Source: Acidimicrobiia bacterium | GTDB lineage: Bacteria > Actinomycetota > Acidimicrobiia > Spongiisociales > ZC4RG35 | DNA length: 64,000 nt | Direction: 5' to 3' | Assembly: GCA_963665765.1 (NCBI GenBank) | Contig: OY762464.1 | Span: 2,674,787-2,738,786 of the forward strand | Shown: positions 8,128 to 54,132 of the stretch, piece after piece | Numbering within the stretch: the stretch's first letter is position 1 | Layout: the number at the start of each line of letters is the position of its first letter | Translations under genes and position numbers: made by a program | Notes under the pieces: model-generated | The model's input: the letters and a program-made list of their open reading frames with translations, nothing else | What the model was told of the DNA's origin: nothing | Database searches by the model: none

Positions 8128-8182
8128 GTCACCCCCACCCTGGTGTATTATTACAGGCACACCAGAGAAAAGGACAAGCACC

Positions 8183-8566: not shown

Positions 8567-8603
8567 CCAGACGCAAGCGCAGAGGTCTGCCGCGGCGCGC
8601 TGT

Positions 8604-8691
8604 GACCGTGGCGGTGGCCAACCTGCTGCTGAACAGGACCGCCACCCCTCCCATGTCCAAACGCCTGAAACTCCCTGTCCCACCGGGTTGA
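8604..8691 (+). repeat. Direct repeat copy 2 (orphan duplicate of DMT gene 3' end)
   Basis: 88 nt identical to 8040-8127 except cc for aa at 8679-8680. Still ends in tga. Upstream match extends weakly to about 8597. Confidence 0.9.
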
Positions 8692-8745
8692 TTTTCCCCG
8701 GCCATGGTTGGGAAAACCACCACCGGGGTCGGCATCTCACCGGGC

Positions 8746-10728
8746 TCACATGTGATCTATGGCGAAGTCCTGAAATCGATCCTGGTGGGTCGACCATTGC
8801 AGTTCGACTCTGGTGACGACGGCGTGGCGCGGCCCTCGAGAGAGCCAATCGGATAGTTCTTCCAAACGACCGCGGCGGCCTTCGGCCAGCACCAGAACGG
8901 TCCCGTCCTCCTGATTGGATACTCTTCCGGCGATTCGCAGACGCCTTGCCCGGGTGACCACCGCCCATCGGAATCCTACGCCCTGTACCCGCCCCCGGAC
9001 CACTGCCTCCAAACGAGCCCGACGAGAGGTCGTCCAGATTCCACTCAGGATCTCTCGCACCTCCGCCGCGTCGGTGGCCACCAAGCATTGGGCGGCTACT
9101 TTCCGGCAACTTTCCATATCCAACGAGCGAACGCGCGCCTTGATGATGGGCACCGAGGGAATGGCTACCGATAGCTCATTTACCCCCAACCCGATCAGCA
9201 CGGGAACCGCCTGGGGATCGCCGGCCATCGCCCCGCACACTCCGACCCAGCGCTGGTGTTGCTCGGCCGCCGAAGTGGTCTCGGCGATGAGACGGAGAAC
9301 GGCCGGATCGAAGGGGTCGGCGAGATCAGCCACCTCCCGGTTGGTGCGGTCCACCGCCAGGGTGTACTGGGTGAGGTCATTGGTCCCGATCGAAAAGAAA
9401 TCGATGTCGGGCGCCAGCCGGTCGGCGATAAGCGCTGCCGAGGGGACTTCGATCATGATTCCCACTTGATAATCGGTGGAGTAGTCCAGTCCGTCGGCTG
9501 TCAGAGACCGTTCGGCTTCGGTCAGTGCTGCCCGAAACGCCAACAGTTCGGCCCTTCCCGCCACCATGGGGGCCATGATTCCCAGCCGACCGGCGCTTCC
9601 GGCGCGGAGCAGGGCTCGCAACTGGGCATGCATCATCTCGGGGCGGGCCAGGGTGAGCCGGATCCCTCGCAGACCCAGGAAGGGATTGAGTTCCTCTCCG
9701 ATCTCGATGCCGGGAACCTGCTTGTCTCCCCCCACATCCAGGGTACGCACCACCACCAGATGGTCTCCGAAGGTTGATAGCACCGCCCGGTAGGCCTCGT
9801 ATTGTTCCTCTTCGGAGATAGGACGGGTCCTGTCCAGGAACAGGAACTCGGTGCGGAACAATCCCACCCCTTCGGCGCCCAACTCCACCGCCCGGGGAGC
9901 GTCCTCGTCGGATCCGATGTTGGCGGCCACCTCGATTCGCGTCCCGTCGCGGGTGACCGCCGGTTTGTGAGCCTGCTCGGCCGCGCCCTCGCGGGCGCGT
10001 CGCAGTTCCTCTTGTTGACCGCGCAGTCGATCGACAACCTCCGGGGAGGGATCGATATAAACCTGCCCGGTGTCGCCGTCAAAGGCCATCAGGTCGCCGG
10101 GCTCGAGGGAGGGCAGATTGACCCCCACCACCGCCGGCAGTGCCATGCCGCGGGCGAAGACGGCGATGTGGGAAGTGGCGCTTCCTTCCTCGGTGCACAA
10201 TCCAAGGGCCATGCCAGGTGGAATGGTGGCCGTCTCGGAAGGGAAAAAGTCGGATGCCACCAACACCGAGGGCGTGGTCAGGTGGTCCCAGGTTTCGAGG
10301 GGAAGTCCCAGAATCGACTTCAGAAGCTGGGTGCCCACGTCGCGGACATCGGCGGCGCGGGCTGCCAGGTATTCGTCATCCAAGGACTCCAGCATGGCGG
10401 CGGACTCCTCGGTCACCTGCAATGTGGCCGCTTCGGCGCACAGGGAGTCATCTTCGATGAGCGTTCGGATTTCGCCGGTGAATTCAGGGTCTTCCAGCAG
10501 GAGAAGATGTGCTCCGATCACCTCGGCCTCTTCGGACTCCTCACCGTGGAGTTCTTGAAGCCCGATCAGCCTTTCCCGGACGGTTGCTTCGCCGACGGTC
10601 AGTTTCTCGATCTCGGCGGTCGGGTCGTCCACCCGGCGGGAGGTGACATCGGGGAGGGTGGATGAATGCAGGTAGACAGGCCCAATGGCGATTCCGGGCG
10701 AAGCCCCGATGCCGGTTCGTTCAATCAT
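8746..10728 (-). CDS. ptsI: Phosphoenolpyruvate-protein phosphotransferase (PTS Enzyme I) with C-terminal acylphosphatase domain
   Basis: 660 aa. N-terminal GIGASPGIAIGP, catalytic-His region GSATSHIAVFARGMALPAV, and PEP-utilising GTNDLTQYTLAVDR. The last ~90 aa, VRGRVQGVGFRW...GRVSNQEDGTVLVLAEG, carry both acylphosphatase signatures. Confidence 0.9.
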   Translation of the reverse strand: MIERTGIGASPGIAIGPVYLHSSTLPDVTSRRVDDPTAEIEKLTVGEATVRERLIGLQELHGEESEEAEVIGAHLLLLEDPEFTGEIRTLIEDDSLCAEAATLQVTEESAAMLESLDDEYLAARAADVRDVGTQLLKSILGLPLETWDHLTTPSVLVASDFFPSETATIPPGMALGLCTEEGSATSHIAVFARGMALPAVVGVNLPSLEPGDLMAFDGDTGQVYIDPSPEVVDRLRGQQEELRRAREGAAEQAHKPAVTRDGTRIEVAANIGSDEDAPRAVELGAEGVGLFRTEFLFLDRTRPISEEEQYEAYRAVLSTFGDHLVVVRTLDVGGDKQVPGIEIGEELNPFLGLRGIRLTLARPEMMHAQLRALLRAGSAGRLGIMAPMVAGRAELLAFRAALTEAERSLTADGLDYSTDYQVGIMIEVPSAALIADRLAPDIDFFSIGTNDLTQYTLAVDRTNREVADLADPFDPAVLRLIAETTSAAEQHQRWVGVCGAMAGDPQAVPVLIGLGVNELSVAIPSVPIIKARVRSLDMESCRKVAAQCLVATDAAEVREILSGIWTTSRRARLEAVVRGRVQGVGFRWAVVTRARRLRIAGRVSNQEDGTVLVLAEGRRGRLEELSDWLSRGPRHAVVTRVELQWSTHQDRFQDFAIDHM

Positions 10729-12014
10729 ATTTGGTCTCCGATAAGTGAATCCTGCCGGCGCCGCAACGACACTATATGTGAAGATTCGTCCAGGCTCACG
10801 TCACGGAAAGTGAGGGGCTCCCCGGCTTTCACCGGCGAAGTCACCACCGCGGCGGGCGCCAACCCAATAGGTAGGAATCGTTCTCTGGCCGCTGGCTCGG
10901 CCTTTTCGATCATGCCATATACACGGTACCCGCCCAGGTCGTCAATCGTCTCCCCTACGGTCAGGTTTCGTTTGGCGAAAGCCACGGTTTCGGCGGTGGG
11001 AGGATGATCGGTGGCCAGGGTGGTCTCTTCGGACAGAACCGCCCGGGCGATGGAGATCGGGGTCTCGAGGTTGGCCAGATGGTAGGGACGGTAGAGCGCA
11101 TAGCAGGGTCCGGGTCCCATGGACAGGTAGCCCAGGTCGCGGACCAGTTTGGGGTGATCGGTGGTGAACACCACGAAGACCCCGGGAGCTATTCCTCGTC
11201 CGTAGTCCACCCGGCCCGGCCCCGACAGCACGCCGCCTTGGGAGGAGGGGACATAGGTGGAGGCGATGGTGTCGACTGTGACCGAGGGGCCGTGCATACC
11301 CCGCACGTCCGGGGTGAACCCGATTCCGTTGGCCAGGGAAGTCATCTCCACCATGGTCTTGGTGCCGTCCACGAAAGATGCCAGCATCTTGGGGTTCATG
11401 CGGCGCTTGCGGGCGGTTTCGGCCACTGTCTCGGGGGTGGCGGTTCGATCCAGTCGATTGTTCTTGCCCTTTCCGGCGCTCACCACCGGAAAGCCCAGGG
11501 AAGCGACGAAGTCATAGATTTCCATGATCGCTCCCGGCTCGTCGCCGCCCGACAGGGTGTAGACCACCCCCGCTTCCTCTGCCATCCGACGCAGGACATA
11601 CCCCACGGTGGCGTCGGTCTCCACATTCATCTGCAGAACATGTTTTCCTGCGGCGATGGCCCCCCGGGCCACCCGGGCGCCCACTTCCGGCACGCCGGTG
11701 GCCTCCACCGAGATATCGATCGGCTCGCACCATGCCAGCGAGATGTTCGAGGTGGCCACCCGCCGCCCGTCGGAGAGAGCGGAGACCGCCCGGTCGGGGT
11801 CATCGGTCTCCACCACCGTCGCTGCGGGGACACCCGCCGATGCGAAAGCCCGGATCGCCCGTTGGGGAGCGGTGTCCACCACCACGCTCGGTTCCATGCC
11901 GGCCATCTGCTCCAGCACCACCGCCAGGCCCTCTCCCATCTGCCCGGCGCCCACCATCCCCACCCGGATTTTGCCTCCGCTTTGTTCCAGTTTCCGAAGG
12001 CGACGATGAAGCAT
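10725..12014 (-). CDS. NAD(P)-binding oxidoreductase with C-terminal SAF domain (homoserine-dehydrogenase-like, COG4091 type)
   Basis: IRVGMVGAGQMG Rossmann motif at the N-terminus. C-terminal AKRNLTVGETI..L is an SAF-like beta-clip. ATGA overlap with the ptsI start. Confidence 0.6.
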   Translation of the reverse strand: MLHRRLRKLEQSGGKIRVGMVGAGQMGEGLAVVLEQMAGMEPSVVVDTAPQRAIRAFASAGVPAATVVETDDPDRAVSALSDGRRVATSNISLAWCEPIDISVEATGVPEVGARVARGAIAAGKHVLQMNVETDATVGYVLRRMAEEAGVVYTLSGGDEPGAIMEIYDFVASLGFPVVSAGKGKNNRLDRTATPETVAETARKRRMNPKMLASFVDGTKTMVEMTSLANGIGFTPDVRGMHGPSVTVDTIASTYVPSSQGGVLSGPGRVDYGRGIAPGVFVVFTTDHPKLVRDLGYLSMGPGPCYALYRPYHLANLETPISIARAVLSEETTLATDHPPTAETVAFAKRNLTVGETIDDLGGYRVYGMIEKAEPAARERFLPIGLAPAAVVTSPVKAGEPLTFRDVSLDESSHIVSLRRRQDSLIGDQI

Positions 12015-34271: not shown

Positions 34272-36299
34272 GTGAGAAGATTTGTAGCAATTCTGGGAGT
34301 TCTGGCTCTCTTGACAGCCGCCTGCGGGGATGGAGACGAAGAAGCCACTCCCACCACCGCGGCGCCCGGGACCACGGCGGCGCCGGAGGAGACTCCGTCC
34401 GAGGAACCCCAAGCTCCGTCCGAGGAGCCCGAGGGGCCGGCCGAGGATCCCGAGCCCGACTATCCCGAGATCACCATCAACATCGGGCATTCGGGTGCTC
34501 CCGACGGCTATGCCGACGTGGCAGCCGTCAAGTTCAAGGAACTGGTGGAAGAAGGTTCCGGCGGTGCGATGACTGTGGAGGTTTTCCCGTCGTCGCAGAT
34601 CGGTTCGGAGCGCGAGCTGGTGGAGGGGGCCCAGTTGGGTTCCATCAACGCCGGGGTGGTGTTCGCCGGGATCCTGGAGAGTTTCGTGCCCGAGATGGGC
34701 GTGGTGAACCTGCCGTTTTTGTTCGACGGCCAGGATCACGTCGACGCGGTGTTCGACGGTCCGGTGGGCCGGGAACTGCTTGGCTTGACCGAGGAAGTGG
34801 GAATCAAGGCTTTGGCGATCGGGCAGTTCGGGTTGCGTTCGATGATGAACAGCCGGCGTCCCATCTATACCCCCTCCGATGCGGCGGGTCTGAAGTTCCG
34901 GGTTCCCGAGTCTGACATCTATATCCGTACCTACGAGTTGGTGGGGGCCAATCCGGTGCCGTTGCCCGGCCCGGAGATATTCACTTCGTTGCAGAACGGG
35001 GTGGTGGACGGAACCGGCGCGCCGATCTTTGCGGCGGTCACCCAGAAGTACTACGAGACGCCGGTCAAGTATCTGTCGCTCACCGAGCACATCTACGCGG
35101 CGTTGCTGATGTTCATGTCGGGCGATCTGTGGGACAGCCTGCCCACCAAGGCCCAGGATCTGATTGAGCAGTCGGCCTCCGCCGCGGCCGCCCATCAGCG
35201 GGCCGAGGCGGCCAAGTTGGACGCCGGTTATCTCGAGGAACTGCAGAACCAGGGCTGGGCAGTCAATGATGTTGACAAGGGCCTGTTCCGCACCGCGGTG
35301 GCGGGCGTCTATGACGAGCGTCCCGAGTTGGCCGAGTGGGCCGACCGGATCCGGGCGGTGAGCCCGAGCGGCGCCGTGGACGTCTCCCTGCTGCCCGAGA
35401 TCACCATCAACATCGGGCACTCGGGGGCTCCAGACGGTTATGCCGACGTGGCGGCCGTCAAGTTCAAGGAGTTGGTCGAGGAGCGCTCCGGCGGCCGCAT
35501 GACCGTGGAGGTCTTCCCGTCGTCGCAGATCGGTTCGGAGCGCGAGCTGGTGGAGGGGGCCCAGTTGGGTTCCATCGACGCCGGCGTGGTGTTCGCCGGA
35601 CTCCTGGAGAGCTTCGTCCCGGAGATGGGCGTGGTGAACCTGCCGTTCTTGTTCGACGGACAGGACCACGTCGACGCGGTGTTCGACGGTCCGGTGGGAC
35701 GTGATCTTCTCGGCTTGGCTGAGGAAGTGGACATCAAGGCTTTGGCGATCGGGCAGTTCGGCCTGCGCTCGATGATGAACAGCCAGCGGCCGATCGTCAC
35801 TCCCGACGATGCCGCGGGTCTGAAGTTCCGGGTTCCCGAGTCTGACATCTATATCCGTACCTACGAGTTGGTGGGGGCCAATCCGGTGCCGTTGCCGGGT
35901 CCGGAGATCTTCACTTCGTTGCAGAACGGGGTGGTTGACGGGACCGGCGCGCCGATTTTCGCGGCGGTCACCCAGAAGTACTACGAGACGCCGGTCAAAT
36001 ATCTGTCGCTCACCGAGCACATCTACGCGGCGCTTCTCATGTTCATGGGTGGCGAACTGTTCGACAGCCTGGGTCCGGCGGCTCAGCAGTTGGTGCAGCA
36101 GGCGGCCATCGAAGCCGCCGCCCATCAGCGGGCCGAGGCGGCCAAGCTGGACGCCGGCTATCTCGAAGAGCTGAACAATCAGGGCTGGGAAGTCAACCAG
36201 GTTGACAAGGATGCCTTCCGCTCGGCGGTGGCGCCCATCTATGACGAGCGGCCCGAACTGGCCGAGTGGGCGGACCGCATTCGTGCGGCTGCTCCGTGA
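34272..36299 (+). CDS. dctP: TRAP transporter substrate-binding protein, duplicated (two DctP modules in one polypeptide), lipoprotein signal
   Basis: GGAGG then GTG 34272. Signal LALLTAACGDG and a Pro/Glu-rich linker. Two ~300-aa DctP-type modules follow, each starting PEITINIGHSGAPDGYADVAAVKFKELVEE and containing SSQIGSERELVEGAQLGS. Confidence 0.85.
   Translation: MRRFVAILGVLALLTAACGDGDEEATPTTAAPGTTAAPEETPSEEPQAPSEEPEGPAEDPEPDYPEITINIGHSGAPDGYADVAAVKFKELVEEGSGGAMTVEVFPSSQIGSERELVEGAQLGSINAGVVFAGILESFVPEMGVVNLPFLFDGQDHVDAVFDGPVGRELLGLTEEVGIKALAIGQFGLRSMMNSRRPIYTPSDAAGLKFRVPESDIYIRTYELVGANPVPLPGPEIFTSLQNGVVDGTGAPIFAAVTQKYYETPVKYLSLTEHIYAALLMFMSGDLWDSLPTKAQDLIEQSASAAAAHQRAEAAKLDAGYLEELQNQGWAVNDVDKGLFRTAVAGVYDERPELAEWADRIRAVSPSGAVDVSLLPEITINIGHSGAPDGYADVAAVKFKELVEERSGGRMTVEVFPSSQIGSERELVEGAQLGSIDAGVVFAGLLESFVPEMGVVNLPFLFDGQDHVDAVFDGPVGRDLLGLAEEVDIKALAIGQFGLRSMMNSQRPIVTPDDAAGLKFRVPESDIYIRTYELVGANPVPLPGPEIFTSLQNGVVDGTGAPIFAAVTQKYYETPVKYLSLTEHIYAALLMFMGGELFDSLGPAAQQLVQQAAIEAAAHQRAEAAKLDAGYLEELNNQGWEVNQVDKDAFRSAVAPIYDERPELAEWADRIRAAAP
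34464..36296 (+). repeat. In-frame tandem duplication, period 930 nt (34464-35393 and 35394-36296)
   Basis: cccgagatcaccatcaacatcgggca recurs exactly 930 nt apart. The two encoded modules are about nine-tenths identical by eye, with differences clustered rather than uniform. Confidence 0.9.
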
Positions 36300-36802
36300 G
36301 CTTGGTAGCCGACCTTATACAGAAAGGCAGTCGGAGCATCATTGCGGTGCTCCGACTGCTCCTCGCCGTATTGCTGGCCGGTCTTTCGCTGCTCATGTTC
36401 ATCCAGGTGGTGATGCGGTACGTTTTCAACTCCTCGATCGTGTGGTCCGAAGAAGTTCCCCGGATCATGCTCATCTGGCTGGTGTTCGTGGGGCTGGCCA
36501 CCACCATGAAGGGCAAGCACCTGATCATCGACATCGTGCGGGAGCGTCGATGGATAGCGGTGGTTTCCATCGCCGTCAAATGGGCCCTGCTGATCTTTTT
36601 CGTCTGGTACGGGACGGTTCTGGCCACCAAGGTGTCCGGACAAACCATGCCCATCACCAAGATTTCCCGCTCCTGGCAGTACGCCGCCGCGCCGGTGGGC
36701 GCCGCTTTGGCTCTGCTATTGGGAGTGGATGAGATAATCGATCTGTTCCGCTCCTCCCGCAACCGCTTCAAGCCGCTCGAACCGATGGCCGCCGAGGCGT
36801 AG
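36296..36802 (+). CDS. dctQ: TRAP transporter small permease
   Basis: GTG 36296 overlaps the dctP TGA. 4 TM segments with MRYVFNSSIVWSEEV..IWLVF typical of DctQ. Confidence 0.75.
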   Translation: MSLVADLIQKGSRSIIAVLRLLLAVLLAGLSLLMFIQVVMRYVFNSSIVWSEEVPRIMLIWLVFVGLATTMKGKHLIIDIVRERRWIAVVSIAVKWALLIFFVWYGTVLATKVSGQTMPITKISRSWQYAAAPVGAALALLLGVDEIIDLFRSSRNRFKPLEPMAAEA

Positions 36803-36805
36803 ATC

Positions 36806-38095
36806 GTGTTGCTGGCCGCGGTGTTCGGCACGCTCTTTTTGCTGTTGGCGTTGCGGGTGCCGATTTTCGTGGCCCTGGGGGGCGCCACCATCGTGGGGGT
36901 GATCTTGCATCCGGCCGCGTCGCTGATCGACGTGGTGCGCAACTCCATCAATGGGATCGACTCGTTGGTGCTGTTCGCCGCCCCGCTGTTCGTTTTGGCC
37001 GGCAATCTGATTTTGGCGGGCGGGGTTTCCCGACGCCTGATCGGCTGGGTGGATCTGCTGTTCGGGTTCAGCCGTCTGCGTCTGGCCTATGTGAACGTGT
37101 TCGGATCGATGTTCTTCGGAGGGATCTCCGGTTCGGCCACGGCCGACTCCGCCGCCATCGGATCGGTGCTGGTGCCGGAGATGAAAAAAGGCGGTTACCC
37201 CACCCCCTACGCGGCGGGGGTCACCGCCGCTTCCAGTTCCATCGGGATCATCGTTCCGCCCAGCGTCCCCATGATCCTGGCGGGCGCCGCCACCAGCGTA
37301 TCGGTGACCAAACTGTTTGTGGGAGGATACGGCCCCGGCATCCTGATCGCGGTTTCCCTGGCGTTGGTGGCCTGGATCAAACGTCCTCGCTCGGGAATAA
37401 AGGCCGATCCCGAGCGGCTCAGCCTCAAGCGGCTGGGGATCACCACCTACAAGGCATTGCCCGCCCTGGTGTTCCCGGTGGTGATCATGGGAGGGATCCT
37501 GACCGGGGTGTTCACGGCCACCGAAGCCGCGGCGGTGGCGGTGGTTTATTCGTTGCTGGTGTCGGTGTTCATCTACCGGGAGATGGGGTGGAAAGCCTTT
37601 TTCAACATCCTCAAAGAGTCGGCCGAATTCGCGGCGGTGGTGTTTTCCATCGTCGCCACCGCCCAGGCCTTCGGGAGGTTCCTGACCCTGGCCAAGGTTC
37701 CCCAGCAGCTCACCGAATTCATGCTGGGTTTTTCCAGCACCCCGGCGGTGGTGATCCTGCTGATGATCCTCCTGCTGCTGATCATCGGCACCTTCATGGA
37801 GACGGTCCCCATTGTGCTGGTGCTCTATCCGATCTTGGAGCCGATCGCCACCTCCCCCGAGGTGGGGATGGACCCCATCCACTACGGGGTCACTTTCATG
37901 GGGGCCATCGCGGTGGGACTGCTCACTCCTCCCTATGGAGTGCTGCTGTTCGTCAATTCCAAAATCGCGGGAATTCCCTCGGCCGATCTGATCCGCGCCG
38001 TTCTGCCTTTTATCGCCGCCCTGATCATCGATGTGCTGATTATCGCCTTTTTCCCACCTCTCAGCCTGGCGCCGGTCAATTTCTTCTTCGGTTAG
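36806..38095 (+). CDS. dctM: TRAP transporter large permease
   Basis: 429-aa polytopic ORF with FGGISGSATADSAAIGSVLVPEM and SSSIGIIVPPS motifs of DctM. Confidence 0.9.
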   Translation: MLLAAVFGTLFLLLALRVPIFVALGGATIVGVILHPAASLIDVVRNSINGIDSLVLFAAPLFVLAGNLILAGGVSRRLIGWVDLLFGFSRLRLAYVNVFGSMFFGGISGSATADSAAIGSVLVPEMKKGGYPTPYAAGVTAASSSIGIIVPPSVPMILAGAATSVSVTKLFVGGYGPGILIAVSLALVAWIKRPRSGIKADPERLSLKRLGITTYKALPALVFPVVIMGGILTGVFTATEAAAVAVVYSLLVSVFIYREMGWKAFFNILKESAEFAAVVFSIVATAQAFGRFLTLAKVPQQLTEFMLGFSSTPAVVILLMILLLLIIGTFMETVPIVLVLYPILEPIATSPEVGMDPIHYGVTFMGAIAVGLLTPPYGVLLFVNSKIAGIPSADLIRAVLPFIAALIIDVLIIAFFPPLSLAPVNFFFG

Positions 38096-38099
38096 CTCC

Positions 38100-39509
38100 A
38101 TGAAAGGTTCTGCCATGCCCAGAGACGATTTTCGCATCCTGTCCTTTGTGAATCACATACCCGTGCACCCCCGGGTGGAGGAGTTCTTGGCCGAGACTGC
38201 CCGCCGGGGAGTGGACGCGGTGTGCTCGCAGGGCACCGGGATGGATTTCGGCCCCTACATGCTGGGAAGCGGCACCCAATTCACCAGCGAGAACTTCCGG
38301 GAAAACGTTCGTCCCTACCTGCGTTTCGCCCAGCAGCAAGGGGTTCCCTTTGTGTTCTCGGTGGGGATCGCCGGGGGCCGGGACCAACTGGACGAATGCC
38401 TGGAACGAGTGGACGAGATCGCCTCGGAGGATGATCTGCCGCTCCGAATCGCGGTGATCGACGGTGAACTGGACCGGGAGATGTTGTCCACTCGGATCCG
38501 GGCCGGCGCCCAGGCCCGCCGAGCCGTGGAGTCGCCCCATCTGCCGGAGATGCTCACCCCCGAGGACGTGGAGTCGGCCGAGCACATTGTGGCGCAGATG
38601 GGTCCCGAACCGATCATGGCCGCCTTGGCCGCCGGAGTGGATGGGGTGATTACCGGCCGGGCGCTTGATGTGGGGATCTACATGGCCCCGCCGCTGCACG
38701 CCGGATTTCCCCGGGGTTCCACCACCCATATGGCCAAGGTGCTGGAATGCGCCGGCTTGGCTCTCCACCCCGGTGACCCGTCCGAACCGATCTACGGGGT
38801 GCTGGAGCGGGACGCCATCTCGGTCTATCCGGTCTCCGACACTCAGGCGGCCACCGCCCGATCCATCGCCAGCCACTCCATGTATGAGCGGGACAACCCC
38901 TTCATGGAGAAGAACCCCGGCGGGTATCTCGACCTGACCGACGCCACCTACACGGAGGTCCCCGGATCGGGAGTGCGTTCGCAGGGAGCGATCTGGGTGG
39001 ATCAGCCCTACACCATCAAGTTGGAAGGCGCTCGCCGCGAGGGATATCGCACCATTGCCGTGTTCGGGGTGCGGGAGCCGGCCTTCATCGAGTGTCTCGA
39101 CTGGTTCTTGGACAACATTCGCTCCACCATTGCCGGGTCTCCCCGTTTTGGGCATCTTGACGAGGGGAAGCACTACCGGATCACCTTCGATCAATACGGG
39201 CGCAACGGAGTGCTCGGTCCCAACGAGCCGCTCGGGGGCCGGATGCCCCATGAGATCGGCCTGTTGGTGGACGTCATCGCCGAAACCCAGCAACTGGCCG
39301 AGAACCTTGCCTACTTTATCTGCATGGAGCTTTGGATCAAGCCCTACCCGAACCGCCAAACCTCGGCCGGCAACCTGGCCACCCGGTTCGCTCCTCCCAC
39401 CATCAACGTGGGACCGGCCTTCTCCTTCAACGTCTGGCATCTTCTGGAAGTGGAAGATCCCCTCGAGCTCTTCCCTTTCGAGGTGGTCGATTTTCCGAGG
39501 GGTCGCTGA
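38100..39509 (+). CDS. AtuA-like (acyclic terpene utilisation, DUF1446) family protein
   Basis: 469 aa. Overall resemblance to AtuA, and it is followed by the small DUF4387 partner that normally accompanies it. Family is recalled, not searched. Confidence 0.7.
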   Translation: MKGSAMPRDDFRILSFVNHIPVHPRVEEFLAETARRGVDAVCSQGTGMDFGPYMLGSGTQFTSENFRENVRPYLRFAQQQGVPFVFSVGIAGGRDQLDECLERVDEIASEDDLPLRIAVIDGELDREMLSTRIRAGAQARRAVESPHLPEMLTPEDVESAEHIVAQMGPEPIMAALAAGVDGVITGRALDVGIYMAPPLHAGFPRGSTTHMAKVLECAGLALHPGDPSEPIYGVLERDAISVYPVSDTQAATARSIASHSMYERDNPFMEKNPGGYLDLTDATYTEVPGSGVRSQGAIWVDQPYTIKLEGARREGYRTIAVFGVREPAFIECLDWFLDNIRSTIAGSPRFGHLDEGKHYRITFDQYGRNGVLGPNEPLGGRMPHEIGLLVDVIAETQQLAENLAYFICMELWIKPYPNRQTSAGNLATRFAPPTINVGPAFSFNVWHLLEVEDPLELFPFEVVDFPRGR

Positions 39510-39832
39510 TGGCCCGGTTGCGTGACCTCGCCAAAACCCTCCGTTCCAAGAACTGCGATCCCTTCAACACCACTTTCGACGTGTTCTTCGACACCGAGGA
39601 CGCCTACCGGCGGGTGAGGGACTCGGGACGGATCACCCCCGAGGTGCTGGCGCCGCTCTACGGGCTCACCACCGACCAGGTGCTGGGCATCTACTTTCTG
39701 GACAACGCTCTGGCTTTCAAGGTGACCATGGTGAAAGACATCGCCTCCTCCGACCCGGCCTGCAAGGATGTGTTCGGGGCCCACCAACACCTGATGCTGG
39801 CCGACCTGGAGATACCGGAGCATTGGACATGA
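39509..39832 (+). CDS. DUF4387 family protein (AtuA partner)
   Basis: ATG 39509 overlaps the AtuA TGA. ~107 aa with LAKTLRSKNCDPFNTTFDVFF...IYFLDNALAFKV as recalled for DUF4387. Confidence 0.6.
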   Translation: MARLRDLAKTLRSKNCDPFNTTFDVFFDTEDAYRRVRDSGRITPEVLAPLYGLTTDQVLGIYFLDNALAFKVTMVKDIASSDPACKDVFGAHQHLMLADLEIPEHWT

Positions 39833-40374
39833 CCAGACTGTTGGACCCCCGAGCCGAGGAATACCGCCGGCTGGACGGCGCCGATCCCCTGAAGCCGGTG
39901 GAATCGGTGGAGCTGAACGTGGGCATCCTCAACTCCCGCTGGGAGTCGATGACCCGCATCGCCGCACTGGTGGAGGAACGTCTCCGGCGGCTTTCTTTCA
40001 TCGGGGACGTTCGGCACTGGAAGATCAAACACTCCGAGCCCACGCCCCAGGAGGTGATTGATCAGGTGGTGGGTTACAGCCACTTCGCAGTGCTGGGGCT
40101 CGGCAACTGAGGGGCTTGCACAGCGTGGAGTTGCCACGATGGAACCGAGTTGAGAAAGCAGGGGTTGGGAACGGTGGTGCTGATCACTGAGGCCTTCGAG
40201 GAGTTGGCTCAGGCCACCCTTGCCAGCAGGGGAGTGCCCGACTTGCCCATGGTGATCTTCCCGCACCGGACCGAGGTGATGACCACCGAAGAGTTGCGGC
40301 CGGTTGTGGAATGGGCGGTGGACCATGAGATCGTTCCCCTCATCGAGGCGGTTCGAGATCCGCTTTTGATCTGA
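39829..40374 (+). CDS. Candidate selenoprotein, UGSC-family-like (UxxC motif); in-frame TGA at 40108-40110
   Basis: Track ORFs 39823-40110 and 40150-40374 are in the same frame with no other stop between them. Read-through gives ...FAVLGLGN-U-GACTAWSCHDGTELRKQGLGTVVLITEAFEEL..., 181 aa. ATG 39829 forms an ATGA overlap with the DUF4387 stop, and the downstream gene starts 1 nt after its stop. Confidence 0.5.
40121..40141 (+). other. SECIS-like hairpin 10 nt downstream of the in-frame UGA
   Basis: cagcgtgg / agttg / ccacgatg: an 8-bp stem with one G-A mismatch and a 5-nt apical loop containing GU. The stem starts at +11 after the UGA. Geometry is compatible with bacterial SECIS but is not diagnostic. 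Confidence 0.35.
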
Positions 40375-41430
40375 GTGACCGAAAAAGCGCCGACCGAAAT
40401 GGAATTACAGTCCCGGGAACTGGATTGCCCCACCGATCGGGGGCTCGACGCCATTCAGGACTGGTTCCACGCCCAGGACCTGTCCGACGGGTTGCCGGTT
40501 ATTCCCCCCACCCCCGACCGGGTGGCCCGGATGGTGGCCGGAAGCAGGCGGGAACCCACCGAAGAGATCGGGATAATCGATCCCAAGCGGGGGGTGGCCA
40601 CGGTTGAGAAACTGGCCATCAATGCGGTGATGGCCGGGTGCCTTCCCGACTATATGCCCGTGATCATCGCCGCGATGGCCGCCATGTGCGAGCCGATCTT
40701 CAACCTGCACGCCATCCAGTCCACCACCAATCCCGCCACGCCCCTGGTGGTGGTCAACGGACCCATTCGCCGGGAACTCGCCATGAACACCGACCGCAAC
40801 CTGCTCGGTCCCGGCAACCGGGCCAACGCCACGATCGGCCGGGCGCTGCGGCTCGCGATGCGCAACTTGGGCGGGGCCTACCTCGGGGTGGATCAGGCCA
40901 CCCACGGGAGCCCCGCCAAATACACTCTGGTGGTTCCCGAGGACGAGGAGTCAAGTCCCTGGGAACCGCTGTCGGTGCAATTGGGGTTCGGGCCGGAGGA
41001 CTCGACCGTCTCGGTGGCGGGCATCGAGTCGGTGATCAACTCCACCGCGGTGTGGTGGACCCCCGATTCTTTGGCCAAGATGCTGGCCAAGACCCTGCGC
41101 TCCACCGCCACCAGCCAGTTCTTTTCCCGGGGGACGCTCACCTTGTTGATGAGCCCTGCCCACGCCGGGGTGTTTGCCCGGAACGGGTGGAGCAAGAAGA
41201 GACTGGCGGAGCACCTGTGGGAGATGGGGAAGGTCCCGCTGTCCGACTACCCGCCCGAGGGCAACATCCCGCAGGGAGATTGGACGGTGGAGGGAGACCG
41301 GGTGTTGATTTGTGAGACGCCCGACGATCTGCGGATCGTGGTGGGCGGAGGCACCGAGGGCAACGCCTCCCATTCGGTGTTCTTCTCGGGATTTTGCCTT
41401 TCCAAGGGCGTGACCAGGAGGATCGAGTGA
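40375..41430 (+). CDS. Conserved-looking protein of unknown function
   Basis: 351-aa ORF with ordinary composition. Tightly coupled on both sides: GTG one nt after the upstream stop, and GTGA overlap with the downstream ACAD. No motif recognised. Confidence 0.55.
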   Translation: MTEKAPTEMELQSRELDCPTDRGLDAIQDWFHAQDLSDGLPVIPPTPDRVARMVAGSRREPTEEIGIIDPKRGVATVEKLAINAVMAGCLPDYMPVIIAAMAAMCEPIFNLHAIQSTTNPATPLVVVNGPIRRELAMNTDRNLLGPGNRANATIGRALRLAMRNLGGAYLGVDQATHGSPAKYTLVVPEDEESSPWEPLSVQLGFGPEDSTVSVAGIESVINSTAVWWTPDSLAKMLAKTLRSTATSQFFSRGTLTLLMSPAHAGVFARNGWSKKRLAEHLWEMGKVPLSDYPPEGNIPQGDWTVEGDRVLICETPDDLRIVVGGGTEGNASHSVFFSGFCLSKGVTRRIE

Positions 41431-42533
41431 CCAGGGATCTGCTGGATCATCTTCGCTCCGAGGTGGCGCCTCGCGTGGACGGCTGGGAGGAGGCCGGCCA
41501 TGTTCCGCCCGAAGCGCTCTGGGAGGTGGGGCGCCGCTTCGGGTTGCTCGGGATGATGACTCCCGCCGAGCGGGATGGGAGTCCCCGGCCGTGGACGGAG
41601 GTCGTGGCGGTGGCGGGCGCCCTGAGCCGTGTGTATCGGCCCTTCGGATTCCTGCTCACCAACGGTCTTATCGCCGGGTACCTGGCGGCAGTCACCAACG
41701 ACCTGCAGTGGGCCAGGCGCGGGCTTCCCATCGTGGAGGGTCGGGCCGCTTCGGTTCTGGCTTTGAACGAACCGGACACCGGTAACGACCTGGCGGCCCT
41801 GGCCACCATTGCCAAGAAGTGTGATGGTGGTTACCGGCTGACCGGGACCAAGACCTACATTCCCAACGCCGATCAGGTCGACTTTCTGCTGGTGGCCGCC
41901 CGGGAAACACCCGATGCGGTTCCGTCGATCTACGCGCTCGATCCCGGCACACGGGGATGCGAGGTGCGCCGCCTGGGCCCGACCATGGCTCTGCGAGGAG
42001 TCCACCTGTGCGAGGTCGAGTTTGACGGGTGCCTGGTGGCGCCGGAGGACCGGATAGGGGAGATGAGAGATCTGTGGCCCCATCTGGGAAGGAGTCGTTT
42101 GCTCACCGCCGGGCTGGCATTGGGATGCGCCACCGAGGCCTTGGAGTTGGCGATCGACTACACCTCCCGGACCCGCAGGTTCGGCATGCCGCTCAACCGG
42201 CAGGGAGCGGTGCAGCAGAGCCTGGCCGAGATGGGGGTGGCGGTGGAGACCGGCCGGGTCTACCTGGATCACGCGGCCAGACGGGTGGACGCGGGTGAAC
42301 GGGCTTCGCTTCAGGTCTCCGCGGCCAAGGTGTATGTCACCGATCTGGCAATGAGTGTGACGACCTCGGCCACTCAACTCATGGGGGGACAGGGATACCT
42401 TATCTCCGGCAAGGTGGAGAGGCTGATGAGAGAGGCGAAACTCAACCAGATCGTGGACGGGGCAAATGAGATCCACCGCGCCCTGATCGCCAGAGAGTTG
42501 TCCGATCGATACGAGGAAAAGGGAGAGATATGA
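41427..42533 (+). CDS. Acyl-CoA dehydrogenase family protein
   Basis: GTG 41427. ALNEPDTGNDLA, YRLTGTKTYIPNA, RFGMPLNRQGAVQQSLAEM and GGQGY fit the ACAD fold. Confidence 0.8.
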   Translation: MTRDLLDHLRSEVAPRVDGWEEAGHVPPEALWEVGRRFGLLGMMTPAERDGSPRPWTEVVAVAGALSRVYRPFGFLLTNGLIAGYLAAVTNDLQWARRGLPIVEGRAASVLALNEPDTGNDLAALATIAKKCDGGYRLTGTKTYIPNADQVDFLLVAARETPDAVPSIYALDPGTRGCEVRRLGPTMALRGVHLCEVEFDGCLVAPEDRIGEMRDLWPHLGRSRLLTAGLALGCATEALELAIDYTSRTRRFGMPLNRQGAVQQSLAEMGVAVETGRVYLDHAARRVDAGERASLQVSAAKVYVTDLAMSVTTSATQLMGGQGYLISGKVERLMREAKLNQIVDGANEIHRALIARELSDRYEEKGEI

Positions 42534-43294
42534 AGGATCAAGTCTCATCGGTGGCCGTGATAACCGGAGGAGCCAGCGGCATCGGCTGGAAGACCGCCCA
42601 ATTGCTGCTGGAACGCCGTCCGGATGTGGCCTGTGCTCTGGTTGACCTCCACGAAGCACGGTCTGCGGATTTGATCGAACGCTTCGGTGAGGACCGGGTC
42701 CGTTTCGTGCAGTGCGACGTAACCGATCCGGCGGCAGTGAACGCCGCCGCGGCGGAGATCGAGAGGTGGAAGGGCCCGATCAAGATGCTGGTCACCTGCG
42801 CGGCGATCCAGATCGTGGGGGACAGCTTCGAGTTGCCCACCGAGCATTGGCAGAAGGTAACGGCGGTGCACCTGAACGGGACTTTCTACTGGTGTCAGGC
42901 GGCGGGGAGGGCCATGAGGGATGGGGGAGGGGGATCGATCGTCACCGTGGGTTCGATAGCACAGGACTTCGGGTTTCCCGGTCGGGCGGCCTACACCACC
43001 TCCAAAGCCGGGATCGGGGGGCTCACCAGGGTGCTGGCGGTGGAGTGGGCGTCGGCAGGGATAAGGGTCAACCAGGTGATCCCCGGGATGGTGGAGACGC
43101 CGCTCTTCCAGCGGGCGGCCGCCCAGGGAATCGTGGACGCCGAGGCGGCCGCCGGGGAGCATGCCCTGGGACGCTTGGGGACCACCGGGGAGTTGGCCGA
43201 GGCCATCGTGTTTTTGCTGTCCGAACAGTCAAGTTTCATCACCGGGGAACTGGTGCATGTGGACGGGGGCTTTCGGGCCCAGCGTCTCGAGTAG
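42530..43294 (+). CDS. SDR family oxidoreductase
   Basis: VITGGASGIGW, NGTF (NNAG-like position), YTTSKAG (YxxxK) and PGMVETP. Confidence 0.9.
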   Translation: MKDQVSSVAVITGGASGIGWKTAQLLLERRPDVACALVDLHEARSADLIERFGEDRVRFVQCDVTDPAAVNAAAAEIERWKGPIKMLVTCAAIQIVGDSFELPTEHWQKVTAVHLNGTFYWCQAAGRAMRDGGGGSIVTVGSIAQDFGFPGRAAYTTSKAGIGGLTRVLAVEWASAGIRVNQVIPGMVETPLFQRAAAQGIVDAEAAAGEHALGRLGTTGELAEAIVFLLSEQSSFITGELVHVDGGFRAQRLE

Positions 43295-43312
43295 AAGGAG
43301 CGCATACAAAAC

Positions 43313-44317
43313 ATGACTAACGACAAAATCAATTGGGACCGCGTCAACGCCTACCTGGAGCGGAGCAAGACCCGGGCAGTACTCAAACCCTACGGATATC
43401 CCGACATCACCAACCCCTTCACCAGTGCCTACGCCGATGTGGATGTGGCGCCGCGCTGGCCGATTTCCGAAGAGGTGGCCATCTCGGTGGCGCTCACCGG
43501 CGGGTTTTTTATGACCCGCCACAACCCGGCCCAGCCCATCACTGAGCAGGAAATCATGGAGGCGGGCAGGGCCTGCATGCGAGCCGGCGCCTCGGCGCTT
43601 CACATCCATGTGCGCAACGAGATGGAGTTGTCCATCCTGGATCTGGCCCGTTTTGTCACCATCATCGAACCACTCCGTGACGAGTTCGATGACCTGTATG
43701 TGTCGGCGGGAGAAGTGGCGATCGGTCCCGACGACTGGAACGAGATGATCAAGATCACCAACTCGGGCCTGATCACCGGGTCACCGGTCAACACCACCGC
43801 CACCTTCTGCGGCGACACCCTGTTCGCCAAGCCTCCGGCAGTGGTGATCGAGAAGACCCGCATCCTGATGGAGGCGGGAGTAAAGCCCGAGATCGCGGTC
43901 TACACCGATGCCGATGTGGACAACGCCCGCCGCTACCTGATCGAATCGGGCCTGCTGGAAGAACCCCTCTACTGGGTGGTGCTACCGGCCCTTCCCGGTG
44001 GTAGCCCCATGCACAACCCCCGCCAGATGATCTCGGGCCTCACCCGGATAGTCGACTCCATCTTCGACATCAACCCCAACTCCATCATCTCGGTGTGCGC
44101 GTCCGGCCGTCCCTCGGTCTACCTGGTCACCCTGGCCATGCTCATGGGCCTCCACGTCCGCCTGGGAATGGAGGACACCGTCTGGCGCTACCCGCATCGC
44201 GACGAGTTGATCGCCTCCAACCTGCAGCAACTACAAGCCGTGACAGCAATAGCCGAAAACCTCGGCCGCCACCCCATGTCCGGCGCCCGCTACCGGGAGC
44301 TACTAGGGGTGGTGTGA
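43313..44317 (+). CDS. 3-keto-5-aminohexanoate cleavage enzyme family (BKACE/DUF849)
   Basis: GASALHIHVRN, HVRLGMEDTVWRY and NLQQLQAVTAIAENLGRHPMSGARYRELLG are typical BKACE segments. Confidence 0.8.
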   Translation: MTNDKINWDRVNAYLERSKTRAVLKPYGYPDITNPFTSAYADVDVAPRWPISEEVAISVALTGGFFMTRHNPAQPITEQEIMEAGRACMRAGASALHIHVRNEMELSILDLARFVTIIEPLRDEFDDLYVSAGEVAIGPDDWNEMIKITNSGLITGSPVNTTATFCGDTLFAKPPAVVIEKTRILMEAGVKPEIAVYTDADVDNARRYLIESGLLEEPLYWVVLPALPGGSPMHNPRQMISGLTRIVDSIFDINPNSIISVCASGRPSVYLVTLAMLMGLHVRLGMEDTVWRYPHRDELIASNLQQLQAVTAIAENLGRHPMSGARYRELLGVV

Positions 44318-51335: not shown

Positions 51336-51339
51336 GCGG

Positions 51340-51440
51340 GCAAACGCGGGAGCTCGGTGAAACCGGGCTGAGAGGGAGGATGGATCCTCCGACCGTCGGC
51401 ACCTGATCCGGGTAATACCGGCGAAGGAAGCTTTCGTTGG
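51340..51440 (+). ncRNA. TPP (THI-box) riboswitch
   Basis: cgcgggagctcggtgaaaccgggCTGAGAgggagg...cACCTGATCCGGGTAATACCGGCGaaggaagc contains the conserved CUGAGA and ACCUGAUCYGGnUAAUnCCGGCG elements. It sits ~50 nt upstream of a thiamine-type binding protein gene. Confidence 0.85.
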
Positions 51441-51489
51441 ACAAATCCCCACCGTTTCCCGGCTCCCCCGAATCAAAGGAGAGCCTGTC

Positions 51490-52518
51490 ATGCGTGGAAA
51501 ACCGGCGGTTTGGATAACCGGCATTGTCCTGGTCCTGGTGGCCTGCGGGGAGTCGAACCCCAACACCCTGACCATCATCAGTCACGATTCTTTTGCAGCG
51601 GGCGTCAGCGAACGGACCTTCGCTCCCTTCACGGCGGAAACCGGCGTCACGGTGAGGATCGTGCCGGCGGGAGACGCCGGGTCGCTGGTCAACCAGGCGA
51701 TTCTGACCAGGGACAATCCGTTGGCTGATGTGCTGTTCGGGGTGGACGACACTTTCCTGTCAAGGGCCTTGGACGCCGATATCTTTCGTCCCCATCGCTC
51801 CGAACTGCTGGACCGCACACCCGAGGACCTTCGTCCGGATGCCGAGAACCGGGTGACCCCCATCGACTTTGGGGACGTGTGTCTCAACTACGACCGGGAA
51901 GTCATCGCCGACGCGTCGGCGCCCCGCGGCCTGGCCGATCTGATCACCGAACCCTATCGTGGTCAGCTGGTGGTGGAGAGTCCCGCCACCTCCTCGCCGG
52001 GTCTGGCGTTCCTGCTAACCACCATCGCGGTGTTCGGGGAAGACGGCTGGCAGGACTACTGGCGGGCGTTGGTGGAAAACGACGTGGAGGTGGTGGCGGA
52101 CTGGGACACCGCCTATTACTCCTCCTTCACCCGGTACGGGGGCGACCGGCCCCTGGTGGTCTCCTATGCCTCCTCTCCGCCCGCCGAGGTTATCTTTTCC
52201 GATCCTCCCACCAACGTGGCGCCCACCGGGGTGGTGGGGCAGGACTGCTACCGGCAGATCGAATTCGCCGGGGTTTTGAGGGGGACCGAGTTCCCCGAGG
52301 CGGCCGGCGAGCTGATCGACTTTATGCTCTCGGTGGAATTTCAAGAGCAGATTCCTCTCACCTGGTTCGTGTTTCCGGCCAATGCCCAGACCCCTCTACC
52401 CCCCGAATTTGTCGAGCACACCGTCCTGCCCGACCAGCCCGTCTCGGTTGATCCGGCTCTGATAGACGCCCATCGTGAACGGTGGATCAAAGAGTGGACC
52501 GCTCTGGTGTTGGGGTAA
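51490..52518 (+). CDS. thiB: Thiamine ABC transporter substrate-binding lipoprotein
   Basis: AAGGAG then ATG. Signal VLVLVACGES (lipobox). Periplasmic binding protein of the iron/thiamine family. Riboswitch context. Confidence 0.8.
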   Translation: MRGKPAVWITGIVLVLVACGESNPNTLTIISHDSFAAGVSERTFAPFTAETGVTVRIVPAGDAGSLVNQAILTRDNPLADVLFGVDDTFLSRALDADIFRPHRSELLDRTPEDLRPDAENRVTPIDFGDVCLNYDREVIADASAPRGLADLITEPYRGQLVVESPATSSPGLAFLLTTIAVFGEDGWQDYWRALVENDVEVVADWDTAYYSSFTRYGGDRPLVVSYASSPPAEVIFSDPPTNVAPTGVVGQDCYRQIEFAGVLRGTEFPEAAGELIDFMLSVEFQEQIPLTWFVFPANAQTPLPPEFVEHTVLPDQPVSVDPALIDAHRERWIKEWTALVLG

Positions 52519-52557: not shown

Positions 52558-54132
52558 GTGCCTAGGAAGCGGATGACCTACCGTTGGCCGGCGGCGGGGG
52601 TGGCCGTGGTCTTTCTGGGCTATCTGTTCCTCTATCCCCTGGCCCGGATCCTGGGCCTGTCCCTGGGAGAGGCGGGAGCGTGGGGGGCGTTCGGCGAGGT
52701 GTTGGCCGACCCCGGAATGAGGGGCGCGCTGTGGTTCTCGGTGTGGCAGTCCGCCTGTTCGGTTGCTCTCACCCTGGTGGCGGCAACTCCCATCACGTGG
52801 GCGCTCTCCCGATTCTCATTTCCGGGTCGGTCCCTGGCCAGAGCCCTGGTCACCGCTCCCTTCGTGTTGCCGACCGTGGTGGTGGGATCGGCCTTTCTGG
52901 CGCTGGGTATGCAGGGAATCCGGGCGATTCTGGCGGCCCACGTCTTCTACAACCTGGCGGTGGTGGTGCGGACGGTGGGAGGAGTGTGGTCACGGATCGA
53001 CCCTGGTTTGCTCGAGGCGGCGCGCACCTTGGGGGCCGCCCCCCGGCAGGTCTTTTGGCGAGTGGTTCTTCCCCTGTTGCGTCCCGCGGTGGCCGCTTCG
53101 TCCGCCATAGTGTTCCTGTTCACCTTCACATCCTTTGGGGTGGTGCTCATTCTGGGGGGTCTTCGTTACCGCACCCTGGAGGTGGAGATCTGGCAGCAGA
53201 CAGTGGTGTTTTTGGATTTACCGGCCGCCGCCGCTCTGGCCGTCTTGCAGTTGGTGGGGGTAACGGGGGTGTTGGCCTGGTACTCCCGATACCAGGAACG
53301 CCGGTCGGTGGGAGTGGACTTGTCGCCGGAAAGCCGGAACCTGCTCCCTCTCTCCACCCCGGGCCGGAGATGGGGAGCAGGGGCGGCGGTGGGGGGAACT
53401 CTGGTCGCTCTCTCCGTTCCCCTGCTGATGCTGGTGGCCCGGTCGCTACGCGGCGGCGGGGTTGGCTGGCGTTTCCTGGTGGATCCCGGACTGTTGGCGG
53501 TTACCCCGGTTCGAGCAATGGCCAATTCCTTGTGGTACGCCTTGGCGACCGTCCTGATCGCGGTGACGGTGGGGCTGTGTGCTTCCACGGTGATCGTCTC
53601 CGGGAAAGGGCGAGCGTCCCGCTGGTTCGATGTCTTGTTGATGCTGCCCCTGGGCGCTTCGGCGGTGACGGTGGGGTTCGGCATGTTGGTGGCCCTGGAT
53701 TGGCCGGTGGATCTGCGGGCTACGGTGGTGTTGGTGCCCCTGGCCCATGCCCTGGTCGCCACCCCCTTTGTGGTTCGGGCCGTGACCCCCATGTTGCGCT
53801 CGGTGGACACCGGATTGCGGGAATCCGCTTCGGTTTTGGGCGCCTCTCCCTGGCGAGTTTTCCGGGAGGTCGATCTTCCCATCGCGGCCCGGGCCACCGC
53901 GGTGGGGGCAGGGTTTGCCGCCGCCATCTCTTTGGGCGAGTTCGGGGCCACCGCCTTCATAGCCCGTCCCGACACCATCACGGTTCCCGCCTTGATCTTT
54001 CGGCTGTTGGGACGTCCGGGAGCGGTCAGCTACGCCGGGGCCATGGCCATGGCGGTACTGCTGGCCGCCCTGGTGACGGGGTTGATCATGGTGGTGGATC
54101 GGGTCCGGCTGGGGGAGTTGGGGAGCTTTTGA
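52558..54132 (+). CDS. thiP: Thiamine/iron-type ABC transporter permease (two fused permease domains)
   Basis: 524-aa polytopic ORF with two EAA-like loops (LEAARTLGAAPRQVFWRVVLP and ESASVLGASPWRVFREVDLP). Confidence 0.8.
   Translation: MPRKRMTYRWPAAGVAVVFLGYLFLYPLARILGLSLGEAGAWGAFGEVLADPGMRGALWFSVWQSACSVALTLVAATPITWALSRFSFPGRSLARALVTAPFVLPTVVVGSAFLALGMQGIRAILAAHVFYNLAVVVRTVGGVWSRIDPGLLEAARTLGAAPRQVFWRVVLPLLRPAVAASSAIVFLFTFTSFGVVLILGGLRYRTLEVEIWQQTVVFLDLPAAAALAVLQLVGVTGVLAWYSRYQERRSVGVDLSPESRNLLPLSTPGRRWGAGAAVGGTLVALSVPLLMLVARSLRGGGVGWRFLVDPGLLAVTPVRAMANSLWYALATVLIAVTVGLCASTVIVSGKGRASRWFDVLLMLPLGASAVTVGFGMLVALDWPVDLRATVVLVPLAHALVATPFVVRAVTPMLRSVDTGLRESASVLGASPWRVFREVDLPIAARATAVGAGFAAAISLGEFGATAFIARPDTITVPALIFRLLGRPGAVSYAGAMAMAVLLAALVTGLIMVVDRVRLGELGSF

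Follow-up and report, generated by a model that had tools for sequence, protein, structure and literature searches.

A putative selenocysteine codon with a minimal SECIS hairpin in a UGSC-family gene of a conserved catabolic operon from an Acidimicrobiia bacterium

UGSC-containing proteins are an established prokaryotic selenoprotein family that carries a UxxC motif and whose function is unknown (PMC2398784; reviews PMC9312934 and PMC13188914). They are approximately 180 amino acids long, with a column of selenocysteine (Sec) or cysteine followed by G-x-C, and in marine/aquatic metagenomes they occur mostly with Sec and seldom with Cys; the Global Ocean Sampling (GOS) survey of Zhang and Gladyshev recorded 255 Sec forms and 21 Cys forms (PMC2398784). 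Two other described systems serve as points of comparison, namely, the selenoprotein B group (GrdB, GrdF, GrdH, and PrdB), which has a Sec-x-x-Cys motif and works with a second, separately encoded subunit, and the fdhF gene of Escherichia coli, whose selenocysteine insertion sequence (SECIS) is part of the coding region and directly follows the UGA codon on its 3' side. In the present study, a 64,000-nucleotide stretch of contig OY762464.1 from an Acidimicrobiia bacterium (hereafter, the window) was analyzed, and we describe a gene at positions 39829 to 40374 of its forward strand in which the in-frame TGA at 40108-40110 is very probably the selenocysteine codon of a UGSC-family protein.

By translation, positions 39829 to 40374 form a single open frame of 181 sense codons, including the TGA at 40108-40110. 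Between the ATG at 39829 and the terminal TGA at 40372-40374, this triplet is the sole stop, and it joins two open reading frames (ORFs) that lie in the same frame. A preliminary description of this DNA had stated that the two ORFs share a frame with no other stop, that the gene is coupled to its neighbors at both ends only if it is read as one 181-residue protein, and that a separate second half would have only a TTG start, and all of this is borne out by the sequence and its translation. The ATG and the stop of the preceding gene share nucleotides (ATGA, 39829-39832), the terminal TGA abuts the GTG start (40375) of the next gene, and TTG 40150 is the only possible start for a separate second half, in which case the product would lack GACTAWSCHDGTEL, where conservation within the family is highest. 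The peptide around the TGA reads LGLGN-U-GACTAWSC, exactly as had been described; the longer context is ...SHFAVLGLGN-TGA-GACTAWSCHDGTE..., and the peptide expected across the Sec residue is ...AVLGLGN-U-GACTAWSCHDGTELR. Sequence, family match, and purifying selection (see below) together mark the interval as a candidate complete UGSC-family selenoprotein gene of 181 residues, in which the predicted Sec is residue 94 and the first residue of the U-G-A-C motif.

The UGSC (seleno)protein family had been named in the preliminary description, and the assignment proved correct. In the hidden Markov model (HMM) searches, in which the query protein carried Cys in place of the TGA, Pfam PF24696 (UGSC family), whose cutoff is 25 bits, was matched with a score of 102.4. 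Residues 4-165 align with positions 2-164 of the 172 profile positions, i.e., the model matches from end to end, extending across the TGA and covering both halves of the protein, and it also matches all 28 aligned relatives. A word-indexed protein search with the full-length protein returned no matches.

The column that contains the TGA is occupied by either Sec or Cys throughout the family. When the unaltered N-terminal half was used as the query of an exhaustive HMMER search, 15 matches were obtained, of which 11 are 92-98 residues long and end exactly at ...GL[G/A]N, and one full-length call from a TARA contig (P0005) has W at the Sec column, which suggests that its TGA was translated under code 4. 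The DNA behind these matches has TGA at the Sec column in every case, followed in frame by G-[A/S/G]-C-T-[A/S]-W-S-[C/V]-H-D and continuing to a second stop, for total lengths of 171-189 residues (one locus, L006, is cut off by the edge of its contig). A further 80 loci came from a scan in which each species was represented by one genome. Whether homologs have Cys or Sec at this column had been proposed as a check in the preliminary description, and in the 89 gene copies from metagenomes and species-representative genomes the codon is TGA in 41 and TGC or TGT in 48, with no other codon found. In all 22 full-length database homologs, Cys stands in a single column flanked by the counterparts of the two halves of the window protein. 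The invariant positions of the 28-sequence alignment are U/C94, G95, C97, T98, W100, H103, D104, P7, and F123, with H103 varying in the wider set of Cys forms. In the [U/C]-G-x-C motif, U/C, G, and the Cys at +3 are invariant and x is A, S, or G; the signature of the family at this site (40108-40110 for the putative Sec codon) is [U/C]-G-x-C-T-x-W.

The region downstream of the TGA also shows the substitution pattern of a coding sequence. The window gene and its 23 orthologs contain no frameshift and no extra stop. Summed over all pairs of these 24 sequences, the substitutions at codon positions 1, 2, and 3 are 3514, 1452, and 7506 in the 75 codons after the TGA and 3539, 2313, and 9154 in the 80 codons before it, and in comparisons with individual relatives, synonymous codon differences are more numerous than nonsynonymous ones, e.g., 24 versus 5 against L008. 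This preponderance of third-position and synonymous changes indicates that the downstream half evolves as a coding sequence in the same frame, and both halves of the gene are under purifying selection in the 24 orthologs. Gene calls of Sec-form UGSC genes systematically stop at the UGA (P0001, P0003, P0004, P0006, P0008-P0014, P0039, and P0041, 92-98 residues; P0039 and P0041 are 95-residue "hypothetical proteins" in NCBI records), and the C-terminal half is called separately or left uncalled. Because public calls are routinely truncated in this manner, the subfamily is under-counted in the genomes of Acidimicrobiia and sponge symbionts, and the two half-ORFs of the window should be merged into a single selenoprotein gene annotation.

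Immediately 3' of the TGA lies a putative minimal bacterial SECIS (40124-40138, forward strand), which consists of a stem of CGUGG (40124-40128) and CCACG (40134-40138) and a loop of AGUUG (40129-40133). The RNAalifold consensus of 35 distinct Sec-form sequences is exactly this 5-bp hairpin, and all five stem pairs are formed in 35 of 35 sequences; in the second pair, 33 of them have G-C and the other 2 (L002 and L019) have A-U, the exchange being achieved via two synonymous third-position changes. The preliminary description had reported an 8-bp hairpin with GU in its apical loop, 10 nucleotides downstream of the TGA. The hairpin, its position, and the GU of the loop stand, but the functional stem is 5 bp rather than 8. 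The extended hairpin (40121-40141, forward strand) does start 10 nucleotides past the TGA and has seven Watson-Crick pairs and one G.A mismatch; according to pairing counts in the homologs, however, its outer C-G, A-U, and G.A are not conserved, the three outer pairs being kept in 77%, 54%, and 34% of the sequences, and GAT/GAC variation among close relatives disrupts the outer A-U pair. The 8-bp stem was therefore rejected as the functional element.

With numbering from the U of the UGA (position 1), the loop reads A22-G23-U24-U25-G26 and position 31 is the last of the hairpin; G23 and U24 are located at 40130 and 40131, respectively. In fdhF, as read from the E. coli K-12 genome, the loop is G22-G23-U24-C25, and the mini-hairpin also ends at position 31. 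G23 and U24 of fdhF are in contact with SelB and are important for SelB binding. The SECIS check that had been suggested for this locus thus yields a hairpin present in all of the Sec forms compared, with G and U at positions 23 and 24 as in fdhF. On the other hand, the loop has five nucleotides (AGUUG) in the window and four (GGUC) in fdhF, and the window element, with its 5-bp stem, has no equivalent of the bulged U17 and no conserved lower stem.

The loop is also the site of the clearest difference between Sec and Cys forms. Loop positions 22-24 form a Ser codon, and this codon is AGT in 38 of 38 Sec forms, whereas the ratio of AGT to AGC is 18:88 elsewhere in the same genes and 1:13 at the loop Ser codon of the Cys forms (Fisher p = 2e-11, a value that ignores the relatedness of the sequences). 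The Streptosporangiales metagenome-assembled genome (MAG) Dino_bin12 contains a Sec paralog with CGUGG-AGUUG-CCACG (L078) and a Cys paralog with CGUGG-AGCUG-CCACG (L045), and a Myxococcales contig (L042) has AGU in the Sec copy and AGC in the Cys copy. The loop U is the nucleotide that tracks the TGA, even within one MAG, and such paralogs, which share the peptide and have hairpins that differ only at position 24, offer a natural example, on a small scale, of the requirements of a minimal bacterial SECIS. Residue 8 after the Sec position is Cys in 36 of 38 Sec forms and in 5 of 48 Cys forms; therefore, it is probably the RNA element (U25-G26-C27), rather than the function of the protein, that maintains the second Cys of "WSC". 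One Cys-form gene (TGC; L031, 10160-10200) still has CGUGG-AGUUU-CCACG with G23-U24 intact and may represent a relic SECIS from a recent Sec-to-Cys switch. An alternative helix (40102-40135, forward strand), in which GGCAACU (40102-40108, including the U of the UGA) pairs with AGUUGCC (40129-40135), is part of the minimum-free-energy fold of 40100-40165 and is mutually exclusive with the mini-hairpin. In the 35 Sec forms, 95.5% of its cells are paired, versus at most 54% when the helix is slid; this pairing is not independent evidence, because the Gly-Asn/Asp codons dictate the 5' arm.

Several observations weigh against the assignment of the TGA as a selenocysteine codon. In the 64-kb window, ARAGORN detected only a tRNA-Trp gene and no tRNA-Sec, and tblastn searches with E. 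coli SelA, SelB, and SelD found none of them there or in the flanking 20 kb of the Acidimicrobiia loci, so that the presence of the Sec machinery in the genome of the window would have to be deduced from relatives that are only 81-87% identical in DNA. The stability of the hairpin is ordinary compared with dinucleotide shuffles (z = -0.76 and -0.29). Rfam returned nothing that matches the hairpin at the gathering threshold over the whole window and nothing relevant at E <= 10 on 39900-40400. Cys forms with the same peptide keep most of the stem, and therefore selection at the RNA level is shown for approximately one nucleotide and one covarying pair, in a comparison of sequences that are phylogenetically related. 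Finally, the only NCBIfam match of the protein, NF041046 "UGSC family (seleno)protein", scores 70 bits and falls under the equivalog cutoff of 125.

With respect to the RNA element, a 2026 preprint on Actinomarina notes that bacterial SECIS elements are poorly represented in Rfam. The stem is largely a by-product of the S/A-W-S-C-H peptide encoded by GC-rich codons, and it is the comparison of homologs, not the folding energy, that shows the feature to be beyond chance.

The searches for Sec machinery covered the window and 34 loci with ARAGORN and the window and all loci with tblastn, and only the Myxococcales locus L042 was positive for tRNA-Sec or sel genes. There, a Sec-form UGSC gene has immediately upstream of it a homolog of SelB (35% identity, E = 2e-54) and a tRNA-Sec whose anticodon is UCA. 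In this MAG contig (6935-8226, minus strand; 8423 onwards, plus strand), the selB homolog and the tRNA-Sec are divergent from the UGSC gene, which is a Sec-form fusion with the partner gene discussed below; the contig also holds the Cys-form paralog, with its Cys codon at 3269. The species representatives closest to the window are MAGs of Acidimicrobiia, in which protein identity is 85-96% and DNA identity over the operon is 81-87%. One of them is bin76 (contig MPNA01000001, locus L009), an Acidimicrobiia member of the OM1 clade that lives in symbiosis with the sponge Aplysina aerophoba; it contains the same operon with 84% nucleotide identity and has a GC content of 61.6% (62.0% in the window). 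The published table of clusters of orthologous groups for bin76 lists two SelA and one SelB. In another lineage of Acidimicrobiia, selA, selB, selC, and selD are present in 84 of 84 complete Actinomarina genomes according to the 2026 preprint. An enrichment of SelA and SelB has been reported for sponge symbionts (PMC5649159), and a selenoprotein in an operon conserved among sponge-associated Acidimicrobiia fits this enrichment.

The TGA could be taken as a genuine stop, in which case the locus would be a split gene or a pseudogene whose products are an N-terminal fragment of 93 residues and, perhaps, a C-terminal fragment with its own initiation. This is how gene callers treat such loci, with separate N- and C-terminal calls that include the 95-residue P0039 and P0041, and no Sec machinery is visible in the 64-kb window. 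However, 41 independent copies from several phyla keep TGA at this column together with an open downstream frame, the Cys homologs are single polypeptides, and the loop U tracks the TGA. Furthermore, the downstream part has no start before TTG 40150, yet it contains the most conserved peptide and is under purifying selection, and we therefore regard termination at 40108 as very unlikely. A second explanation, in which the UGA is read through without selenium, for instance by means of a near-cognate tRNA for Trp or Cys or because of a reassigned code, to give a full-length protein that is not a selenoprotein, takes up the point that low-level UGA read-through is known in bacteria, and P0005 does have W at the codon. 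That residue probably arises from the translation table applied to an AT-rich contig, whereas TGA serves as the stop of a neighboring gene and of the UGSC gene itself, and the homologs have Cys at the column and never Trp or Gly. Because a SelB-type hairpin in the fdhF register and a loop U linked to the TGA would moreover be unnecessary, decoding without selenium is highly improbable.

An error in sequencing or assembly would require only one base, which is all that separates TGA from TGC or TGT. However, the same TGA recurs in 40 further copies from independent assemblies, 22 of them Acidimicrobiia-type orthologs, and the AGU loop codon, which is absent from the Cys forms (AGC in 13 of 14), is found with it in every case; we consider an error at this position to be extraordinarily unlikely. 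Selenocysteine is very probably the correct reading of the codon, and both the observation and the interpretation put forward in the preliminary description are sound.

The motif of the window protein differs from that of the named family in that it is U-G-A-C preceded by G-N and not U-G-S-C. The clade with [S/G]D-U/C-G-x-C passes the NF041046 cutoff with 127-144 bits (L033, L040, L045, and L078), whereas the clade of the window protein and several others score 50-90 bits. On this basis, the G-N-U-G-A-C proteins, found in genomes of Acidimicrobiia, Spongiisociaceae, and SAR324 and in AT-rich TARA contigs, constitute a separate subfamily, and the window protein lies inside the wider UGSC family but outside the NF041046 equivalog. 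The UGSC family is already known, and a further member of the G-N-U-G-A-C type will not surprise a specialist; what interest remains concerns the function of UGSC and its partner and the very small, peptide-entangled SECIS.

The partner is encoded by the gene directly downstream (40375-41430, forward strand), a 351-residue protein of a large uncharacterized family that is linked to UGSC by adjacency and fusion. It matches no Pfam or NCBIfam family, has more than 7500 database homologs at E <= 1e-10, and the source names of the matches listed are all "hypothetical". The partner gene adjoins the UGSC gene in nearly all of the 80 loci, across phyla, and natural UGSC-partner fusions of 524-567 residues, in both Sec and Cys forms, are found in Amycolatopsis, Microbispora, Pseudonocardia, Acrocarpospora, and several MAGs (L031, L034, L035, L036, L037, L043, L055, L079, L042, and L080). 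Because of this near-universal adjacency and the natural fusions, the UGSC protein most likely works with the downstream 351-residue protein. The UGSC/Unknown_1 fusion of the GOS survey (PMC2398784) can be likened to the present fusions only in that UGSC is joined to an unknown domain. The structure model of the partner, which is confident (predicted local distance difference test [pLDDT] = 90, predicted TM-score [pTM] = 0.92), has no relative by fold in the PDB, where the best TM-score is 0.28. Its invariant residues include D38-G-L-P41, A87-G-C89, T117-T118, N128-G-P130, and R149/R156/R159.

At the junction of the two genes in the window (40372-40377), the stop TGA of the UGSC gene and the GTG of the partner gene are in the same frame, at the point where relatives are natural fusions. 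One metagenomic contig (L004) carries two tandem pairs of Sec-form UGSC and partner genes (7165-8749 and 10038-11629), one with U-G-S-C and the other with U-G-A-C, and a gene for a periplasmic binding protein lies between them.

The fold of the UGSC protein was approached by modeling P0036, a Cys homolog that has the motif C-G-A-C and approximately 33% identity to the window protein, with AlphaFold2. The model, which is confident (pLDDT = 88, pTM = 0.83), takes the shape of a five-unit β-α flavodoxin/Rossmann-like domain, in which the Sec-equivalent Cys is located between the strand of residues 96-102 and the helix of residues 105-120. A Foldseek comparison of this model with the PDB gave generic three-layer α/β proteins, i.e., the C-terminal domain of GH3 (TM-score up to 0.60), RecJ DHH, and WrbA/flavodoxin, and a PDB sequence search with the family profile gave nothing meaningful. 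Judging from the homolog model, the window product may be a flavodoxin-like α/β domain. A thioredoxin-like fold was suggested for UGSC in the GOS paper (PMC2398784); no thioredoxin-fold protein is among the PDB matches listed, the model of the homolog is flavodoxin-like, and the thioredoxin fold was rejected.

Similar to selenoprotein B, the UGSC protein has a Sec-x-x-Cys motif and may work with a second, separately encoded subunit. When the 28 UGSC-domain sequences were compared with NCBIfam models, six matched TIGR01917 (best E = 2e-5), six matched GrdF, five matched TIGR01918, four matched GrdH, and one matched PrdB, and the matched coordinates put the UGSC Sec near position 347-348 of the selenoprotein B profile. 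The best relative scored 23.7 bits against a cutoff of 602 for TIGR01917 and 18.9 bits against a cutoff of 65.45 for TIGR01918, i.e., far below the cutoffs, and the window protein itself had no match to TIGR01917, TIGR01918, or TIGR04483. In contrast to the UxxCxxC motif of GrdB, the motif of the window protein is UxxCxxxxC, and the protein is only approximately 180 residues long. Family searches found no GrdA, GrdE, or PrdA homolog and no Grd/Prd family among the genes of the cluster, and the UGSC carriers include cultured aerobic actinomycetes, which are not known as amino-acid-fermenting anaerobes. Homology of UGSC to selenoprotein B is a lead only.

In the proposed mechanism, the ribosome would reach the UGA at 40108-40110, SelB would deliver Sec-tRNA(Sec), and translation would continue past the UGA to the stop at 40372; for the organism of the window, both SelB binding and selenium incorporation are predictions from sequence. 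The Sec residue would be placed in the loop between a β-strand and the N terminus of a helix, with the invariant Cys three residues on (U-G-A-C). UGSC would then most likely cycle between a selenol/thiol and a selenenylsulfide state, in a presumed redox role, and would most likely act with the 351-residue protein. A more speculative proposal, which we consider rather doubtful, is that UGSC and its partner form an unrecognized two-component selenium- or thiol-dependent enzyme, in which UGSC, as a free-standing domain, is remotely related to the part of GrdB/PrdB that carries Sec. Such an enzyme would catalyze a reductive step on an organic acid imported by a tripartite ATP-independent periplasmic (TRAP) transporter, possibly a carnitine-like β-hydroxy or amino acid, and its hosts would be marine heterotrophs, sponge symbionts among them.

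In the window, whose source is an Acidimicrobiia bacterium of a sponge-associated type, the UGSC gene is part of a codirectional cluster in the order DctP-DctQ-DctM, AtuA, DUF4387, UGSC, the 351-residue protein, acyl-CoA dehydrogenase, short-chain dehydrogenase, and β-keto acid cleavage enzyme (BKACE), all on the forward strand. The genes of the TRAP transporter (DctP, DctQ, and DctM) occupy 34272-38095 and are followed by genes for an AtuA-family protein (38100-39509; PF07287) and a DUF4387/AtuA-ferredoxin-like protein (39509-39832; PF14330); the acyl-CoA dehydrogenase, short-chain dehydrogenase, and BKACE genes occupy 41394-44317. The transporter and these last three genes were identified by family matches and are kept with the cluster in L007-L029, where the AtuA-DUF4387 order is also found by similarity; the same order matches in L004 and L005. 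The cluster is conserved in the loci of Acidimicrobiia, "Candidatus Spongiisociaceae", and SAR324, and the present assignment adds a selenoprotein to a catabolic operon conserved in sponge-associated Acidimicrobiia. The DctP gene (34272-36299, forward strand) encodes a protein of 675 residues with two DctP stretches, which looks duplicated or fused and has 92-97% identity in the closest Acidimicrobiia relatives.

A scan of the window for same-frame TGA junctions flagged, among others, positions 2310 and 6653 on the forward strand. Both were rejected as selenoprotein candidates, being ordinary gene boundaries between a CT398-like coiled-coil protein and an RNase H-like protein and between an unknown 303-residue protein and HPr, respectively. 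Elsewhere in the window, a thiamine pyrophosphate (TPP) riboswitch (51336-51446, forward strand; RF00059, 63.2 bits, above the gathering score of 54.3) is located directly upstream of genes for an ATP-binding cassette (ABC) solute-binding protein (51490-52518) and a permease (52558-54132), which presumably form a thiamine-related uptake system.

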